Below the pieces are notes generated by a model. The model was given only the letters and a program-made list of their open reading frames with translations. It did no database searches and was not told the origin of the DNA. A program made the translations under genes and the position numbers. A DNA stretch of 64,000 nt. Source: a phage. The stretch is from sequence record PZ019086.1; one strand, written 5' to 3'. Within the stretch, counting starts at the first letter, position 1. Each line of letters opens with the position of its first letter. This document shows positions 8,292 to 63,318 of the stretch, one piece after another.

Positions 8292-8391
8292 AGTAAGCGT
8301 TTAATACATCAATCATTAAAACGATTGGGAATATACTCAAAACTACTAGTATTATAACTACATTCCATATAGCTTTAACAATCTTTTTCAT
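8278..8391 (-). CDS. Small membrane peptide (37 aa); track ORF 8278..8526 is over-extended across a promoter
   Basis: Internal Met preceded by SD GGAGG; early promoter lies at 8420..8449, inside the longer track ORF. Confidence 0.3.
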   Translation of the reverse strand: MKKIVKAIWNVVIILVVLSIFPIVLMIDVLNAYFGFM

Positions 8392-8419: not shown

Positions 8420-8449
8420 ATAATACCACAGAGGAACAGTCTTGTAAAC
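8420..8449 (-). promoter_or_regulatory. T4-type early promoter
   Basis: GTTTAC / 17 nt / TGG-TATTAT on minus strand. Confidence 0.5.
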
Positions 8450-8925: not shown

Positions 8926-8955
8926 ATAGTACCACAGTCCTTGTGGTATGTAAAC
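8926..8955 (-). promoter_or_regulatory. T4-type early promoter with palindromic spacer
   Basis: GTTTAC ... CCACAAGGACTGTGG ... TACTAT on minus strand. Confidence 0.5.
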
Positions 8956-13205: not shown

Positions 13206-13235
13206 ATTATACCACATCCTTGTGGTAAAGTAAAC
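13206..13235 (-). promoter_or_regulatory. T4-type early promoter (consensus -10) with palindromic spacer, upstream of rIIA.1
   Basis: GTTTAC / spacer containing CCACAAGGATGTGG / TATAAT on minus strand. Confidence 0.6.
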
Positions 13236-15055
13236 TATTGGCTCATCCATTCTTTACGAAGGTCAGCATTATCTCCCATGAGCATTTCAAAAAGCTCTTT
13301 CCAGTTCTCAGGAAGTTTAACAACATCATATACTGGGTTTTGAATCATCTCACGATATTCAGATTTTTCCAAAGAGCCAAGTCCCTTAATATAACGGATG
13401 CTATGTTTAGGTAGAGCATCTTTGGCACTCTCATATTCAGCGACTGTATAAAACCATTCTTGTTTTTTACCGACCTGAGCGATGATTACAGGAGTTTTGA
13501 CAAAGCGAATTCTTCCTTGTTCAAACAGTTCTGGCCAATTACTAAAAAATCCGAGCAGAGAAGGATAAATGCTTCCTAGACCATCATGGTCAGCATCGGT
13601 CATAATAGCAATATTATGATAATTCAAGTTTTCAGCCTTTTCACCAAGAACTAATCCAGTGATTGCGCAAATATCAAACAGTTCTTTGTTTTTAAGCATA
13701 TCAGCATATGACATACCCCAACTGTTGAGAACTTTACCACGTAATGGATAACCGCCATGAAGTTCTTTATCACGAACATCAATAAGATATCCGATAGCAG
13801 AATCACCCTCAGTCAAGAAAAGAGTAGTGTCAGCGTCTTTACCGCAAAGATTCGCTTTAATATGTTTATGAACCTTAGCTTTAGAAGCCTTTTTAGCTGC
13901 TTTAGTTTCTGCTGCCTTTTCTGCCGCCAATTTACGAGCCAAAGCAGCTTCAATAATTGGCATTAAAATTGCTTCATTATTTAAAATAGCACGTGAAATC
14001 TTTTTAGCATCAAGCTGAATATGACTACGAATTTCACCAAATGGAGAAGTCAAACGCTCTTTAGTCTGAGAATCAAATCGCATGTTTTTCATATCACGAA
14101 CAAACATAACGATAGTCAAACATTCTTTAACCCGTGCTTTAGTTACATCAATTTTGAACTTACGTTTGATTTGTGGAATAAGGTCTTCACAAATATCATC
14201 CATAACGCAGTCAATGTGATGGCCGCCATTCTTAGTATGAATGTTATTAACGTATGTTAATTGACGAAAACCATCCGGTGAACGACCAATCGCAATAGAA
14301 CAATTTTCTTGTTCTTGAACGATAGCATGCTCATCATATTGGCGTGCGTATTTCTTAAAATTGCCCTGAACCTTTTTACCATTAAAGGTAAATTGAATAT
14401 CAGGATAAACTACTGCAAGTGTCTGGAGACGATCTAGCGTAATGTCAAGATAAACTTGAGATAGCTCATTAGTTTCAAATGACATAAAATCAGGAATGAA
14501 AGTAACACGTGTTCCTTTCCATTTTCCAGGAATAGTTTCCCATGATTTATTTTCCATGCCATTTGAACAACGAACTACAATATTATTTTGACCGTCGCCA
14601 GTTTCACCGACAAACGTCACAGAAAAAATGTTAGTTAAACTAGAACCAACACCGTTCATACCACCAGTGACGCGTTCTTTGTCATCACCGAAGTTACCAC
14701 CTGCCTTTGGAATAGTCCAGGCAGCAACAGGACCAGGAATTTCTTCACCAGTAGGTGTTTTAACCATCGCTTGCGGAATACCACGACCGTTATCTTCAAC
14801 TGTTACTTGATTGTTTTTAATGGTAACATTAATTTTATTTGCGAATTTAAACTTAGTACGAATACCTTCATCTACTGAGTTATCGATAATTTCATCAATA
14901 AGCTTAACAAGACCAGGTACATACTGAACACTTTCCCATTTACCAAACAGAAAGCGCTCATGCATTTCATTAGCAGAAGAGCCAATATACATGCCGCTAC
15001 GCTTTTTGATATGTTCAATATCGCTCAGAATTTTAATTTCATTCTTAATCATCAC
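13235..15055 (-). CDS. 39: DNA topoisomerase II large subunit gp39, uninterrupted (GyrB-like ATPase plus Toprim in one ORF)
   Basis: 606 aa; GHKL motif (IDNSVDEG...DNGRGIP) and Toprim (LFLTEGDSA); T4 splits this into 39 plus 60. Confidence 0.9.
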   Translation of the reverse strand: MMIKNEIKILSDIEHIKKRSGMYIGSSANEMHERFLFGKWESVQYVPGLVKLIDEIIDNSVDEGIRTKFKFANKINVTIKNNQVTVEDNGRGIPQAMVKTPTGEEIPGPVAAWTIPKAGGNFGDDKERVTGGMNGVGSSLTNIFSVTFVGETGDGQNNIVVRCSNGMENKSWETIPGKWKGTRVTFIPDFMSFETNELSQVYLDITLDRLQTLAVVYPDIQFTFNGKKVQGNFKKYARQYDEHAIVQEQENCSIAIGRSPDGFRQLTYVNNIHTKNGGHHIDCVMDDICEDLIPQIKRKFKIDVTKARVKECLTIVMFVRDMKNMRFDSQTKERLTSPFGEIRSHIQLDAKKISRAILNNEAILMPIIEAALARKLAAEKAAETKAAKKASKAKVHKHIKANLCGKDADTTLFLTEGDSAIGYLIDVRDKELHGGYPLRGKVLNSWGMSYADMLKNKELFDICAITGLVLGEKAENLNYHNIAIMTDADHDGLGSIYPSLLGFFSNWPELFEQGRIRFVKTPVIIAQVGKKQEWFYTVAEYESAKDALPKHSIRYIKGLGSLEKSEYREMIQNPVYDVVKLPENWKELFEMLMGDNADLRKEWMSQ

Positions 15056-17247: not shown

Positions 17248-17323
17248 AGTTATCTCTCACTTGTTAAAAAGATTTTATACTCCGCGGGACCATTATACTC
17301 TGGTCCCAAGAGTTTGTAAACTA

Positions 17324-29110: not shown

Positions 29111-29140
29111 ACTATAACACAACTCTATCAGCTTGTAAAC
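29111..29140 (-). promoter_or_regulatory. T4-type early promoter
   Basis: GTTTAC / 18 nt / TATAGT on minus strand. Confidence 0.45.
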
Positions 29141-29598: not shown

Positions 29599-29628
29599 AC
29601 TATACCATAGTCTTGTCAGCTTGTAAAC
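29599..29628 (-). promoter_or_regulatory. T4-type early promoter upstream of dmd
   Basis: GTTTAC / 18 nt / TATAGT on minus strand. Confidence 0.45.
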
Positions 29629-50889: not shown

Positions 50890-51172
50890 GAGAAATAATT
50901 CCTTGATAAGCCCAGTATGGCGGGTTAACAGAATCATCGCCAGAATTTTCTTCAGGAAAATAAACCTGGATAACAAATCCAGATGCATCAAAGGTAAAAT
51001 AAACCGTAGGTAATTCACCTAACAATTCAGCGCGGTTATTAATTTCTTCAAGTTCTCGTTCTCGTCCAGCCCAAAAACTAGGATTTAGACTACATTCATA
51101 GAAATAATAGTCATTACCGAACATATCAAAACCCTTCCAACTCTCTACCACATACCGCTCAAAACTAATCAT
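50861..51172 (-). CDS. Hypothetical protein (103 aa)
   Basis: ORF. Confidence 0.45.
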   Translation of the reverse strand: MISFERYVVESWKGFDMFGNDYYFYECSLNPSFWAGRERELEEINNRAELLGELPTVYFTFDASGFVIQVYFPEENSGDDSVNPPYWAYQGIISRGTKLELKE

Positions 51173-51976: not shown

Positions 51977-53790
51977 TGGTGTTTAACCCTATGCATGATT
52001 TCTTTATTTTTGCCGAGATTAAATCCACGTTCGTTCGGATTTCCCAAATAACCGCAAGTTCTTCTTATTGTGTTCATCTTTTTAGGATCAGTTTCTCCAC
52101 AAATAGAACAAACAAATCCGTTTTCAGTAGGAGTCATTTCATGGGTACTTCCACACGTAAAACATTTATCTACTGGCATATTAACACCAAAATAATCTAA
52201 ATGTTGTGCAGCATAATCCCATACAGCCTCAAGACCTTTTAGGTTATTTTTCATATCAGGAAGTTCAACATAAGAAATGTGACCACCTGTCGCAATGAAA
52301 TGATATGGTGCTTCACGAGAAATCTTTTCAAACGGAGTAATATTTTCTTCTACTGAAACATGGAAACTATTAGTGTACCAGCCTTTATCAGTAACATCTT
52401 TTACACTTCCATATTTTTCGGTATCAAGTTTACAGAAGCGATAACAAAGGTTTTCAGCAGGTGTAGAATACAAGCTAAAAGCAAAACCAGTTCTTTCAGT
52501 CCACTGCTTAAGACGAGCATTCATTTTAGTTAAAATTTCTTGCCCAATATCACGTCCGACAAGAATATTCAATTCGTGAATACCAATGTATCCTAAGGAC
52601 ACTGAACTTCTACCGTTTTTAAATAACTCAATTATGTCGTCATCAGGTTTAAGACGAACCCCGAATGCACCTTCTTGGTAAAGAATAGGAGCAACAGTCG
52701 CTTTAACTCCTTTTAAGGAACTAATTCTACACATCAAAGCTTCAAAACACAAATCCATTCGTTCATTGAACAATTCGGCAAATTTCTGTTCATTGAATTG
52801 TGTTCCAATATAAGAATCTAACGCAATGCGAGGAAGATTCAGCGTTACAACGCCAAGATTATTACGTCCATCAAGAATTTCATTACCAGTCGAATCTTTC
52901 CATACGCTTAAGAAACTACGGCAACCCATTGGAGAAACAGGAATAGATGAACCGGTGATAGCTTTATTGTTCTTAGCTGAAATAATATCAGGATACATTC
53001 TTTTGCTTGCACACTCTAGAGCAAGCTGCTTAATATCATAGTTCGGATCGTCTTTATAAAGATTAACACCTTCTTCAACAAACATAACAAGTTTAGGGAA
53101 AATAGGAGTTATCCCATCACGACCAAGACCTTTAATACGATTTTTCAGAATTGCTTTCTGAATCATTCGTTCAGTCCAGTCAGTTCCCGTACCAAATGTA
53201 ATTGTTACAAAAGGCGTTTGTCCGTTTGAACTAAAGAGAGTATTTACTTCATATTCATAAGCTTGGAATGCATCGTATACATCTTTTTCTGTTTTAGATT
53301 GGGCATAATTCAACGCATCAGCGATTTGCCATTTTTCTGCATCCTCAATATGTTTTGCGTATGTGCGTTTAACATAAGGAGAAAGTACTTTATCTACATT
53401 AGCAAAAGTCGTTCCGCCGTACTGATGTGAAGCAACCTGTGCGGTAATTTGTGCCATAATTGCAGTAGCAACGCCGATTGATTTAGGAGTTTCAATCTGT
53501 GCATTACCGAGCTTAAATCCGTTTTCAAGCATTCCTTTTAAATCTACTAAACAGCAATTAGTAAATGGAAGAGCAGGGGAATAATCAATATCGTGGAAAT
53601 GGATAATTCCGCTTTCATGCGCTTTCATAATAAAAGACGGGACCATATTTTTGGCAATGTGTTTAGACACAATACCAGCCATAAGGTCCCGTTGAGTTGG
53701 AAAAACACGAGAATCTTTATTAGCATTCTCGTTCAAAAGGTCTTTATTAGTTTTATGAATCAATCCTTCAATTTCTTTTTCAATTGTCAT
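51973..53790 (-). CDS. nrdD: Anaerobic ribonucleotide reductase NrdD, uninterrupted
   Basis: 605 aa single ORF; C-terminal glycyl-radical motif RRTCGYLG and Zn site CxxC. Confidence 0.9.
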   Translation of the reverse strand: MTIEKEIEGLIHKTNKDLLNENANKDSRVFPTQRDLMAGIVSKHIAKNMVPSFIMKAHESGIIHFHDIDYSPALPFTNCCLVDLKGMLENGFKLGNAQIETPKSIGVATAIMAQITAQVASHQYGGTTFANVDKVLSPYVKRTYAKHIEDAEKWQIADALNYAQSKTEKDVYDAFQAYEYEVNTLFSSNGQTPFVTITFGTGTDWTERMIQKAILKNRIKGLGRDGITPIFPKLVMFVEEGVNLYKDDPNYDIKQLALECASKRMYPDIISAKNNKAITGSSIPVSPMGCRSFLSVWKDSTGNEILDGRNNLGVVTLNLPRIALDSYIGTQFNEQKFAELFNERMDLCFEALMCRISSLKGVKATVAPILYQEGAFGVRLKPDDDIIELFKNGRSSVSLGYIGIHELNILVGRDIGQEILTKMNARLKQWTERTGFAFSLYSTPAENLCYRFCKLDTEKYGSVKDVTDKGWYTNSFHVSVEENITPFEKISREAPYHFIATGGHISYVELPDMKNNLKGLEAVWDYAAQHLDYFGVNMPVDKCFTCGSTHEMTPTENGFVCSICGETDPKKMNTIRRTCGYLGNPNERGFNLGKNKEIMHRVKHQ

Positions 53791-57334: not shown

Positions 57335-57386
57335 GTTCTTCTCACTTGGTTAATGATTTATACTCCGAGCCATCCTTGGCTTTAAA

Positions 57387-58409
57387 TTACTTAATTAACT
57401 GTAAAGCTTGTTCAAGACGATCCAGGCGATTAACAGATTCTTCCCAAATCCTTTTAGCTTGCTCATATTCTTTCTGCGCTTTATTAGAAATTTCTAGAGC
57501 TTCTTTATAAGCTTTTTCTAATGCAATAACTTCTGGACGAATTTCTACCGGTTCAGGTGAATCGTCAAGACATTCCATTAGTTCCTCAAGGGTAGTTTCT
57601 TCTTTAGGAGTATTCACAATTTCTTCACATTTTTGTTGGTAAATTTCTTTATCAGTCGGTGAGTACGCACACTTTACTTCACGAAGACTAACTACAATTT
57701 TATATCCTTCCCAACCGCATATATTCTTAAAAGGATACGTATGAATATTTTCTACTGTTTCCATACAAAGTAGTGCAGTCTCTAATTGACGAGTTATAGT
57801 GCTAGCAATTGAGAAAAATTTATTAATATTCCTTTGGTTAGTTTCTGGTGTAAAAAATCCATAATTCACAAAAATAGATACTTTATTTTTATCAAGTTCA
57901 TATTCTTTTATGATAATCATATCAGAAGCCAAAGGATGAATTTGACGATAATCGCCATAACATAATTTAGAAGCTGATTTTAGAATCTGTCCTTTGAAAA
58001 GCCTGAAATTACTAATCCAACGACGAGTAAAAATATTCTCAGGGTCTTCTTTATTATTAAGATGATAAGAATTAACATCACCGAACCAATTATATCCTAC
58101 TACATCTTTGGTTCGTTTAATTTCTTTCCCAAAATTACCAAGAATATCTCGATTAACCAAATATGAAAGAAGACGAGACTCTTTAAAGGTTTTCTTGATA
58201 ACATCTTTATCTACACGGCTAGAAATTTTACGAATTTCATGAATAAATTTAACAGAAGAAACAATACTTGCATCAACACTATTGAGCCATTGATTGATAA
58301 TAGAAATAACGCTATTTTGGCCAAACATCGGTATAGCTTTATCATCAATAACGCTATTGAATGATTTGATATATTCGTTACGAGTCATATTAATCTCCTC
58401 AGATACCAC
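57387..58409 (-). CDS. Hypothetical protein (340 aa) with C-terminal coiled-coil tail
   Basis: C-terminus ...EKAYKEALEISNKAQKEYEQAKRIWEESVNRLDRLEQALQLIK. Confidence 0.5.
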   Translation of the reverse strand: MVSEEINMTRNEYIKSFNSVIDDKAIPMFGQNSVISIINQWLNSVDASIVSSVKFIHEIRKISSRVDKDVIKKTFKESRLLSYLVNRDILGNFGKEIKRTKDVVGYNWFGDVNSYHLNNKEDPENIFTRRWISNFRLFKGQILKSASKLCYGDYRQIHPLASDMIIIKEYELDKNKVSIFVNYGFFTPETNQRNINKFFSIASTITRQLETALLCMETVENIHTYPFKNICGWEGYKIVVSLREVKCAYSPTDKEIYQQKCEEIVNTPKEETTLEELMECLDDSPEPVEIRPEVIALEKAYKEALEISNKAQKEYEQAKRIWEESVNRLDRLEQALQLIK

Positions 58410-58428
58410 ATCCTTGTGGCAAAGTAAA

Positions 58429-60759: not shown

Positions 60760-60814
60760 AATAATCTCAATTAAAAGGGCTTAGAACCATTATACCATCC
60801 TTGGTATAAAGCGG

Positions 60815-61370: not shown

Positions 61371-61400
61371 ATAGTACCACAGAGGAACAGTCTTGTAAAC
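61371..61400 (-). promoter_or_regulatory. T4-type early promoter
   Basis: GTTTAC / 18 nt / TGG-TACTAT on minus strand; near-copy of the 8420..8449 module. Confidence 0.5.
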
Positions 61401-62793: not shown

Positions 62794-62844
62794 ATTTGTT
62801 TTGATAGGGTAATAGTATCACACTACTACCCTACTGTAAACAAT

Positions 62845-63288: not shown

Positions 63289-63318
63289 ATAGTACCATAA
63301 AGCTTTATGCTTGTAAAC
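63289..63318 (-). promoter_or_regulatory. T4-type early promoter
   Basis: GTTTAC / 18 nt / TGG-TACTAT; near-copy of the 5282..5311 module. Confidence 0.5.

Follow-up and report, generated by a model that had tools for sequence, protein, structure and literature searches.

GGA-loop hairpins in the promoter spacers of T4-like phages are a sub-family of promoter-stem-loop cassettes and closely resemble CsrA-binding hairpins

Promoters of T4-type phages are known to carry stem-loops: the composite early promoter-stem-loops (PeSLs) described by Arbiol et al. (2010, PMC2839356) were extended to PST/T4, together with a middle-promoter version (PmSL) in nt-1, by Comeau et al. (2014, PMC4122927). In T4, the genes e, soc, 49 and I-TevI have structures with an embedded promoter that sequester the ribosome-binding site (Uzan & Miller 2010, PMC3014915), and RegB/S1 sites, in which an A-rich heptamer comes after GGAG or, rarely, GGAU, need single-stranded RNA (Durand et al. 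2006, PMC1702504). Here we analyze a family of short hairpins with GGA in the loop, found in promoter spacers and at intergenic sites of a 64,000-nt stretch of phage DNA (sequence record PZ019086.1), referred to throughout as the window. The family is a sub-family of PeSL cassettes in which a GGA-loop hairpin lies between the -35 element or MotA box and the -10 element. A preliminary description made from the sequence had held the element to be absent from accounts of T4 early promoters; this is true of the sub-family with an invariant GGA loop, which is new, but not of promoter-embedded stem-loops, which are already known as PeSLs (Arbiol et al., PMC2839356).

The window comes from a T4-like phage (Tequatrovirus), with 96-98% identity to many isolates by megablast, and spans the tail-fibre/t/asiA region, rIIB, rIIA, topoisomerase, dda, 43, 45, 55 and nrdD, up to the nrdC.x genes. 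Its early genes are on the minus strand, and the five hairpin sites that it contains (A to E, Table 1) are therefore all read on that strand. All five are intergenic, with stems of 5-8 bp closing an A-AGGA-(U/C) loop. We compared them with complete T4 (AF158101), with complete RB69 (Mosigvirus), and with other genera in which NrdC.4, a protein 43-51% identical between T4 and the other genera compared, was the anchor for orthologous regions; this anchor gave five close loci and 13 with an alignment, enough for orthologues of sites B and C and not for a large sample. Scans for AGGA hairpins supplied most family members, but not the Gelderlandvirus copy or the orthologues of sites B and C. Pattern scans of IMG/VR with CCACAAGGATGTGG and GTTTAC-N0-8-CAAGGATG gave, among the matches listed, mostly random matches in unrelated contigs, along with a few T4-like copies, and led to an unrelated phage group (see below).

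The evidence for a conserved hairpin comes from orthologous promoters whose two arms have changed in a complementary manner around the same loop. Upstream of nrdC.4, the promoter reads GTTTACTTTG-CCACA-AGGA-TGTGG-TATAAT in T4, GTTTA-CATCCA-AGGA-TGGATG-GAGTATAAT in Dhakavirus JS10, and GTTTA-CTTCCA-AGGA-TGGAGG-GAGTATAAT in Gaprivervirus VR25/VR20 and Yersinia phage P8, so that the RNA stems would be CCACA/UGUGG, CAUCCA/UGGAUG and CUUCCA/UGGAGG, respectively, with AGGA constant; some Dhakavirus contigs have CATCC-AAGGAC-GGATG. Site C, at the middle promoter PnrdC.7, is identical over 31 nt in T4, JS10 and VR25-type genera despite diverged flanks, and among 590 phage records from three genera, 580 match this 31-mer with at least 99% identity. 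In RB69, the orthologue of site C is ACCC-AAGGAC-GGGU: both arms are rewritten (T4 has UACC..GGUA), and AAGGA is unchanged. RB69 has at least eight members including this one, the others lying in promoter spacers before other genes, compared with five in T4 and five in the window. A Gelderlandvirus cassette, which was retrieved by BLAST rather than by an AGGA search, reads GTTTA-CATCC-ATGGAA-GGATG-TGTTATAAT and also has GGA in its loop. The JS10 cassette is widespread: 273 phage records contain its 30-mer, at 836 places in total, and each Mosigvirus genome has 4-5 copies. Site A has a narrower distribution: no AGGA hairpin is found between topoisomerase and rIIA.1 in JS10, VR25 or RB69, which have different genes there, and on this comparison site A is specific to Tequatrovirus. 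In all, complementary arm changes are seen in at least 10 variants from five Tevenvirinae genera, while GGA, usually as CCAAGGA, stays constant; the loop is usually A-AGGA-U and sometimes AAGGAC, AAGGAA or AUGGAA.

Quantitative tests on these sites confirm the covariation. Over 15 distinct sites, stems formed by a site's own flanks have a mean length of 6.0 bp, compared with 3.1 bp for cross-paired flanks, and the observed total is not reached in any of 20,000 permutations. An ungapped alignment of the 14 distinct tetraloop members has standard pairs in 89.8% of cells (59.8% in shuffles), changes on both sides in 28 cells (10.8 in shuffles), and a covariation score of 0.70 (0.16 in shuffles, with slid controls all ≤0.16); for each of these three quantities, 0 of 500 shuffles attain the observed value. 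The five inner pairs are intact in every one of the 14 sequences, with up to six pair types, and in 14 of 15 intergenic contexts, site A included, the hairpin belongs to the minimum-free-energy (MFE) structure. Thus the orthologous stems and the permutation and pair-count tests bear out the original observation that the palindromes are not due to chance and that their arms covary around a fixed asymmetric centre. Two features of the sample weigh against this interpretation: the invariance of the loop stems partly from the search by AGGA hairpin, and three of the RB69 copies are identical, as gene conversion or duplication would make them. Even so, we consider it very probable that the hairpin is under selection.

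The hairpins are also more frequent in the window than expected. AGGA tetraloops closed by at least five Watson-Crick pairs number four on the minus strand and none on the plus strand, an excess of about 11-fold over dinucleotide shuffles (mean 0.36; 1 of 300 reaches four), so that the comparison with shuffled sequence, named at the outset as one that could refute the element, comes out in its favor. Among the 256 tetraloops, UUCG alone is commoner than AGGA in the window. On either strand of complete T4, AGGA tetraloops with stems of this kind are confined to the four orthologous sites, and flanking stems accompany only four of the 10 copies of CAAGGATG, all four intergenic and on the minus strand. 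Because A and B are near-duplicates, statistics from the window by itself are modest, which counts against the case as made there; the strong support is that from related phages. As separate observations on tetraloops, UUCG hairpins with stems of at least 5 bp, the classical T4 C(UUCG)G class, occur 12 times on the minus and twice on the plus strand of the window, and GAAG tetraloops also show a 4-to-0 distribution.

The five sites differ in the promoters to which they belong. Three lie in early-promoter spacers (A, B and E, assigned by sequence pattern alone), one in the middle promoter PnrdC.7 (C), and one in a cassette remnant without a -35 element (D); the initial designation as an early-promoter feature therefore applies to A, B and E, but not to C or D. 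Each site adjoins a -10-like element on the minus strand, as had been noted: TATAAT at A and C, TACTAT at E, TATAAAT at D and TATCTG at B. The 14-mer from which the family was recognized, CCACATCCTTGTGG, does occur exactly twice, at 13212-13225 and 58406-58419, where only 0.2 matches would be expected even with two mismatches. The identical context around it, put at about 26 nt, proved to be slightly larger, with 28 of 29 nt common to both copies (minus strand TAGTTTACTTT[A/G]CCACAAGGATGTGGTAT). The three variants reported with a constant AGGA are all present (in DNA form, AGCCA-AGGA-TGGCT at D and TACCACA-AGGAC-TGTGGTA at E), although the coordinates of the site at 57.4 kb were one base off.

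Sites A and E share the arrangement GTTTAC, 18 nt, then TATAAT (A) or TACTAT (E; promoter at 8926-8954). At A, the 3' arm of the hairpin is formed by the TGTGG extended -10. The T4 orthologue of A is at 2433-2450 (RNA UACCACAAGGAUGUGGUA), and that of E, at 167086, reads TACCAC-AAGGACC-GTGGTA and is the fifth T4 member; together, the T4 members are at 2.44, 49.9, 50.95, 53.34 and 167.08 kb. At site B, the window has kept the -35 element GTTTAC and the spacer, and the -10 element is now TATCTG instead of TATAAT. This results from a 17-nt deletion relative to T4 (window 58393-58405; T4 50915-50950; lost sequence AATGTTCTTACTTTCTA), which takes the end of the -10 element and most of the 5' untranslated region of the nrdC.4 promoter, leaves hairpin B whole, and brings its GGA to 15 nt from the GGA of the Shine-Dalgarno (SD) sequence. 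Hairpin C has the MotA box CGCTTTA (60807-60813) on one side and the -10 element TATAAT (60789-60794) on the other, and overlaps both. It corresponds to T4 53333-53352, and the start predicted from it, 53325, is exactly the published, MotA-dependent start of PnrdC.7 (Hinton 2010, PMC2988021, Table 1). Hairpin D is followed by C-GGAG-TATAAAT (57356-57362), with TATAAAT 5 nt downstream; judged by its sequence, the site appears to be a decayed version of the cassette that RB69, JS10 and VR25 carry (compare RB69 ...GGATG-GAG-TATAAATC). The GGAG-TATAAAT(C) that follows the hairpin here (57356-57367) and in RB69 (8330-8345) resembles both the RegB/S1 consensus GGAGAAUAAAA and the late-promoter core TATAAATA.

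Members are always intergenic and on the transcribed strand, 25-49 nt upstream of a start codon and 0-18 nt past the stop codon of the upstream gene. Most early promoters of the window have TGTGG, TATGG or CATGG ahead of the -10 element, so most of the 3' arm is supplied by the extended -10 of the promoter itself (TGTGG-TA or TGG-TA), and just the 5' arm and the constant AAGGA need a special explanation. Beside site A, the large subunit of topoisomerase II (13235-15055, minus) is a single open reading frame of 606 aa. RB69 has the same arrangement, whereas in T4 the mobA/60.1 insertion and the gene-60 bypass divide it into genes 39 and 60.

Table 1. GGA-loop hairpins of the window and members in RB69.
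Feature	Sequence (5' to 3')	Window coordinates	Strand	Remarks
Hairpin A	UACCACA-AGGA-UGUGGUA	13210..13227	minus	7 bp, tetraloop; between topoisomerase large-subunit gene and rIIA.1
Early-promoter-like cassette around A	(G)TTTAC, 18 nt, TATAAT	13206..13234	minus	sequence pattern
Hairpin B	(UG)CCACA-AGGA-UGUGG(UA)	58404..58421 (core 58406-58419)	minus	upstream of nrdC.4
Hairpin C	UUAUACCA-AGGA-UGGUAUAA	60790..60809	minus	8 bp; DNA form TTATACCA-AGGA-TGGTATAA
Hairpin D	AGCCA-AGGA-UGGCU	57368..57381	minus	8 nt past nrdC.4 stop codon
Hairpin E	UACCACA-AGGAC-UGUGGUA	8930..8948	minus	7 bp, pentaloop; downstream of denB
RB69 member	UACCACA-AGGAU-UGUGGUA			before rnlA; paralogue of E
RB69 member	AACACC-AAGGAA-GGUGUU			before alc
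RB69 member	CACCA-AGGA-UGGUG			
RB69 member	CAACCA-AGGA-UGGUUG			three identical copies; before nrdC.5, nrdC.3, motB.1
RB69 member	CAUCC-AAGGAC-GGAUG			before motB

The geometry of the sites bears on the kind of element that is conserved. The distance from AAGGA to the -10 element is 3, 5, 6, 9 or 10 nt across members, and the CCA and TGG half-sites are separated by either 4 or 8 bp, depending on the member. An operator in duplex DNA is unlikely, since the arms share no sequence and both the half-site spacing and the offset to the -10 element vary, and the same variation makes a positional promoter element unlikely; the element is therefore best read as a single-strand hairpin. Of the two possibilities raised in the preliminary description, the selected hairpin has turned out to be the right one, while the dimeric regulator site fails on these same grounds. 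Because the start sites are downstream of the hairpin, the whole of it would be present on read-through transcripts only. Pairing is less informative about the strand: the count of wobble pairs is ambiguous (two sense-only compared with up to eight antisense-only G.U extensions) and was not used as evidence. Where the U at the 3' closing position is replaced by C, as happens recurrently, the pair is lost if the sense strand folds but becomes G.U if the antisense strand does. Overall, the arrangement of sites and start positions suggests that the hairpin probably acts as sense RNA on read-through transcripts.

Other types of RNA element were considered and set aside. An intrinsic terminator would have a G+C-rich stem and a U run; a scan for terminator-like patterns picked out none of the hairpins, and they lack a U-tract. 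Rfam gave no match at the gathering score in the window, and elsewhere in 57.3-60.9 kb only matches at chance level. A RegB cleavage site does not fit, because GGAU is enclosed in a tight hairpin with G/U-rich sequence after it; when all 30 intergenic GGAU motifs of T4 were examined by primer extension, only those of 55.2 and motB.2 proved to be cut (PMC1702504). Nor is the hairpin a leader of the e, soc, 49 or I-TevI type that sequesters the ribosome-binding site: it is self-contained, and in the MFE folds the SD sequence is not paired with it.

The resemblance of these hairpins to CsrA-binding hairpins is close. Selection in vitro (SELEX, systematic evolution of ligands by exponential enrichment) gave for CsrA the consensus RUACARGGAUGU, with GGA in a hairpin loop and ACA 100% conserved (PMC4347634), and the consensus for RsmE is A/UCANGGANGU/A (PMC6849547). 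Members A, B and E carry ACAAGGAUGU, which is 10 contiguous positions of the 12 in the SELEX consensus; A to D carry CAAGGAUG, equal to CANGGANG, which all tetraloop members match, and all members have GGA in the loop of a short hairpin. The GGA hairpins of CsrB from E. coli K-12 include ACACCA-GGA-UGGUGU, CUCCA-GGA-UGGAG, CAUCA-GGA-UGAUG, ACUUCA-GGA-UGAAGU and UCA-AGGA-UGA, and the first two of these are very similar to CACCA-AGGA-UGGUG and CUUCCA-AGGA-UGGAGG in phages, with the same architecture. At CsrA sites a second GGA is found 10-63 nt away, typically overlapping the SD sequence. In the phages a second GGA is present 29-39 nt downstream in 13 of 17 contexts, a distance that a CsrA dimer can span but that is fixed by promoter geometry, and 15 nt downstream at site B of the window. 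During T4 infection CsrB is reported to be unusually stable (PMC9697503), and knock-down of csrA has broad phage-related fitness effects (PMC7553319).

These similarities suggest the following mechanism. With the embedded promoter starting downstream of the hairpin, the stem-loop would mark the read-through copies of the downstream gene. Host CsrA may bind this hairpin, whose CA-NGGA-NG core with a stem corresponds to an optimal site of the CsrA (RsmA/E) family, and in most copies it could bridge to the second GGA, in the SD sequence 29-39 nt downstream. The read-through mRNA would then be held down translationally or handled in some other way, and promoter-initiated mRNA would escape; collectively, abundant early transcripts could also titrate CsrA. 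By analogy with the known sites, GGA-loop PeSL hairpins that recruit host CsrA to read-through RNA are, as a whole, our tentative choice of explanation, and CsrA binding as such we regard as possible but somewhat doubtful.

Similar hairpins have been found outside the T-even phages. Six IMG/VR contigs with 35-38% G+C (loci L027, L069, L081, L119, L031 and L076), whose nearest DNA matches are distant, ∼45-kb Vibrio, Pseudoalteromonas and Serratia Eta-like phages, carry (AU)GCACA-[A/U]GGA-UGUGC(AU) and GCCACA-AGGA-UGUGGC 31-35 nt before start codons. There are two such intergenic hairpins per ∼10 kb, followed by ACTATAA(A/G)-type sequences; the outer stems covary, with variation at the N position. 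Recurrence in an unrelated phage group fits a conserved host factor. A more general proposal, that T-even phages and at least one unrelated lineage of gamma-proteobacterial phages embed CsrB-like hairpins that bind CsrA with high affinity in promoter cassettes so that CsrA would be recruited to read-through RNA or titrated, draws on the same analogy and is rather unlikely to hold in full.

Several observations weigh against a role for CsrA. The assignment is made by resemblance alone, and our literature searches turned up no paper linking T4 to CsrA-binding hairpins. Many members have CCA where the SELEX consensus has ACA, and AAGGAC loops fit less well. The second GGA is absent from the SD sequence in T4 C, T4 D and RB69 8362, and where it is present, its spacing of 29-39 nt would be dictated by promoter geometry anyway. 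Finally, 5-8 sites per genome are few for a sponge.

The rival that survives best is a generic PeSL stem-loop without a specific partner, which would act on read-through RNA as an attenuator or insulator, or would protect the 3' end of the upstream cistron once the RNA has been cleaved in the AU-rich -10 region, and would also be a patch of homology for the shuffling of cassettes, with the loop kept constant by common descent and gene conversion between them. PeSLs with stem-loops between the -35 and -10 elements are described, and terminator activity was shown for one example from RB49 (PMC2839356). The same cassette stands before motB.1, motB, nrdC.3 and nrdC.5 in RB69 and before nrdC.4 in JS10 and VR25, and this, the identity of the three RB69 copies, the position of hairpins just past upstream stop codons, and the existence in the window and in RB69 of other promoter families with unrelated hairpins enclosing the -10 element all favor it as well. 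However, the stems are short and AU-rich, with no U-tract, and none was scored as terminator-like. More importantly, AAGGA is kept at orthologous sites where both arms are rewritten and the neighbouring proteins are only ∼45-50% identical, and GGA survives even in the AUGGAA loop; descent alone should not freeze a loop while the stems turn over. We therefore regard the generic form as an unlikely explanation, though one with a substantial claim.

An element acting as DNA, either a hairpin or cruciform on single-stranded or supercoiled DNA or the site of a phage or host DNA-binding regulator that shuts off a subset of early and middle promoters, would account for the position of all copies next to or over a -10 element, the late-type TATAAAT among them. 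How early promoters are shut off is said not to be known (PMC2988021), PeSL recombination has been mapped within the stem-loop (PMC2839356), and the wobble pairs leave the strand ambiguous. In contrast, arms without conserved sequence, the alternation of CCA-N4-TGG with CCA-N8-TGG and an offset to the -10 element of 3 to 10 nt are difficult to reconcile with a protein site on duplex DNA. A hairpin in DNA would be weakened by stems containing G.U, as in VR25 and T4 B, and by A.C at closing positions, and extrusion is poor for 5-8 bp stems with loops of 4 nt. Site B of the window, moreover, has lost its -10 element with the hairpin intact. A DNA-level role is thus improbable.

We consider slightly less probable still that the hairpin mimics an SD sequence, serving as a ribosome standby or decoy site through contact of AAGGA and a GGAUG or GGAGG 3' arm with the 3' end of 16S rRNA, or that it hides GGA from RegB. 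AAGGA and the purine-rich 3' arms (AAGGAUGGAGGGAG in VR25) are indeed SD-like, the 5' arms (CUUCC, CAUCC) are anti-SD-like, sister promoter families have spacers with anti-SD pairing to the downstream SD sequence, and RegB recognises GGA and is blocked by structure (PMC1702504). But a 4-nt loop cannot pair with the anti-SD unless the stem melts, the true SD sequence is 29-39 nt further on, and the sites are RegB-resistant (PMC1702504), which leaves RegB a passive role at most. The last rival, that spacers next to an extended -10 arm are complementary by accident as a by-product of the promoter consensus, is largely refuted and has very little probability left: TGTGG, TATGG or CATGG before most -10 elements, the near-duplication of A and B and the choice among 256 tetraloops would favor it, but orthologous covariation extends to cassettes in which the 3' arm is not an extended -10 (UGGAUG-GAG-TATAAT), the permutation and pair-count tests speak against accidental pairing, and only the intergenic, transcribed-strand copies of CAAGGATG have stems.

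Promoter spacers in these phages carry other arrangements besides the GGA-loop hairpin. Early-promoter spacers of the window (61371-61399 and 8420-8448, minus) have an anti-SD sequence with perfect complementarity to the SD region of the downstream gene, CTGTTCCTC pairing with GAGGAACAG, and in a Gelderlandvirus (L263, 8013-8080 and 14486-14560) the spacer sequence ATCTCCGTTT pairs with AAACGGAGAT; with such anti-SD spacers, read-through RNA would mask the ribosome site and promoter-initiated RNA would not. A second hairpin family encloses the -10 element in its loop or 3' arm, at 29599-29627, 29111-29139, 17292-17320 and 62812-62840 (minus) in the window and at 76798, 69240, 165781 and other positions in RB69. 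Examples are GGGACC-agagtataat-GGTCCC and AGCTGATAGA...TCTATCAGCT, and its stems covary between T4 and RB69 (GGGACC/GGTCCC, GGGAGC/GCTCC, GAGAGC/GCTCTC). A perfect 14-nt palindrome, CATAAAGCTTTATG, fills the early-promoter spacer at 63289-63317 (minus) and recurs at two T4 promoters (146875 and 55384), as a further repeated spacer cassette. In the T4 record AF158101, 14 nt of the early promoter Pe133295 (133300-133313; L125) are annotated as 'inverted complement of previously reported sequence', and these 14 nt are the exact loop of a GGTAGAG-[14 nt with -10]-CTCTACC hairpin; a genuine inversion between the inverted repeats, and not an error in sequencing, could account for the difference. Finally, in a 137-kb IMG/VR contig with 44% G+C (L071, 3500-3560), GCCACA-AGGA-TGTGGC fills the spacer of a promoter-like site, TTGACA-N18-CATATT, an arrangement that is seemingly outside the T-even group.

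The spacers of T4 early and middle promoters have been treated as free sequence. The present results indicate that a subset of them carries a second, overlapping code, the GGA-loop hairpin, which explains spacers that are frozen across genera, such as the 31 nt of PnrdC.7 in ∼580 genomes. If the hairpins do bind CsrA, this would be the first lytic phage found to wire the host Csr system into its transcription units, and it would provide a protein-mediated way for a phage to tell promoter-initiated from read-through mRNA, linking early expression to host Csr. In practical terms, T4 promoter 'parts' may bring hidden RNA elements with them into synthetic biology, and conservation of promoter spacers can be used to annotate such cassettes.

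It is instructive to compare the GGA-loop hairpins with the described systems. With RegB sites they share an intergenic GGA(U) on T4 early transcripts, and GGAG-UAUAA(U/A) lies 3' of the hairpin in the RB69, JS10 and VR25 cassettes and at site D. With e, soc, 49 and I-TevI they share a promoter inside the structure, so that long transcripts fold and promoter-initiated ones, which are without the 5' strand, do not; the helix in those genes, however, holds the SD sequence or AUG, and the promoter is late, whereas the GGA hairpin is local and ends 25-40 nt before the SD sequence. Any discrimination between the two kinds of transcript would need a trans factor. CsrA/RsmA sites have the same short stem with C-G and A-U as its last pairs and the same GGA loop; many of the phage copies also have a second GGA in the SD sequence, at a spacing set by promoter geometry. 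No phage example of CsrA-binding hairpins appeared in the papers searched, and the phage hairpins differ from known CsrA sites in lying in a promoter spacer, which would place them on read-through RNA only, and in having, in some members, an unpaired closing position (AAGGAC).

The closest match is to PeSL and PmSL. As in these cassettes, an AT-rich upstream region is followed by sigma-70-type -35 and -10 elements or a MotA box and a -10 element, by a stem-loop between them or overlapping the -10 element, and then by an SD sequence and ATG, and many copies per genome stand before different genes in different phages. The family shows each of these features: a sigma-70-type early promoter (in T4, TTTACW-N17-TAYWAT) or a MotA box with a -10 element, site D being without a -35 element and site B having a full promoter in T4; a stable stem-loop between the -35 and -10 elements or overlapping the latter; and repetition within the genome, beside different genes in related phages. 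The stems of described PeSLs are poly-G/poly-C in RB49/phi1, A3-4G3..C3T3-4 in nt-1, and AGNA..TCNT upstream of the promoter in PST/T4. The GGA-loop hairpins have no U-tract or terminator signature, and their PnrdC.7 copy is frozen over 31 nt in three genera. Above all, described PeSLs have no reported conserved loop, whereas in the GGA family it is the loop that is constant and the stems that are free.

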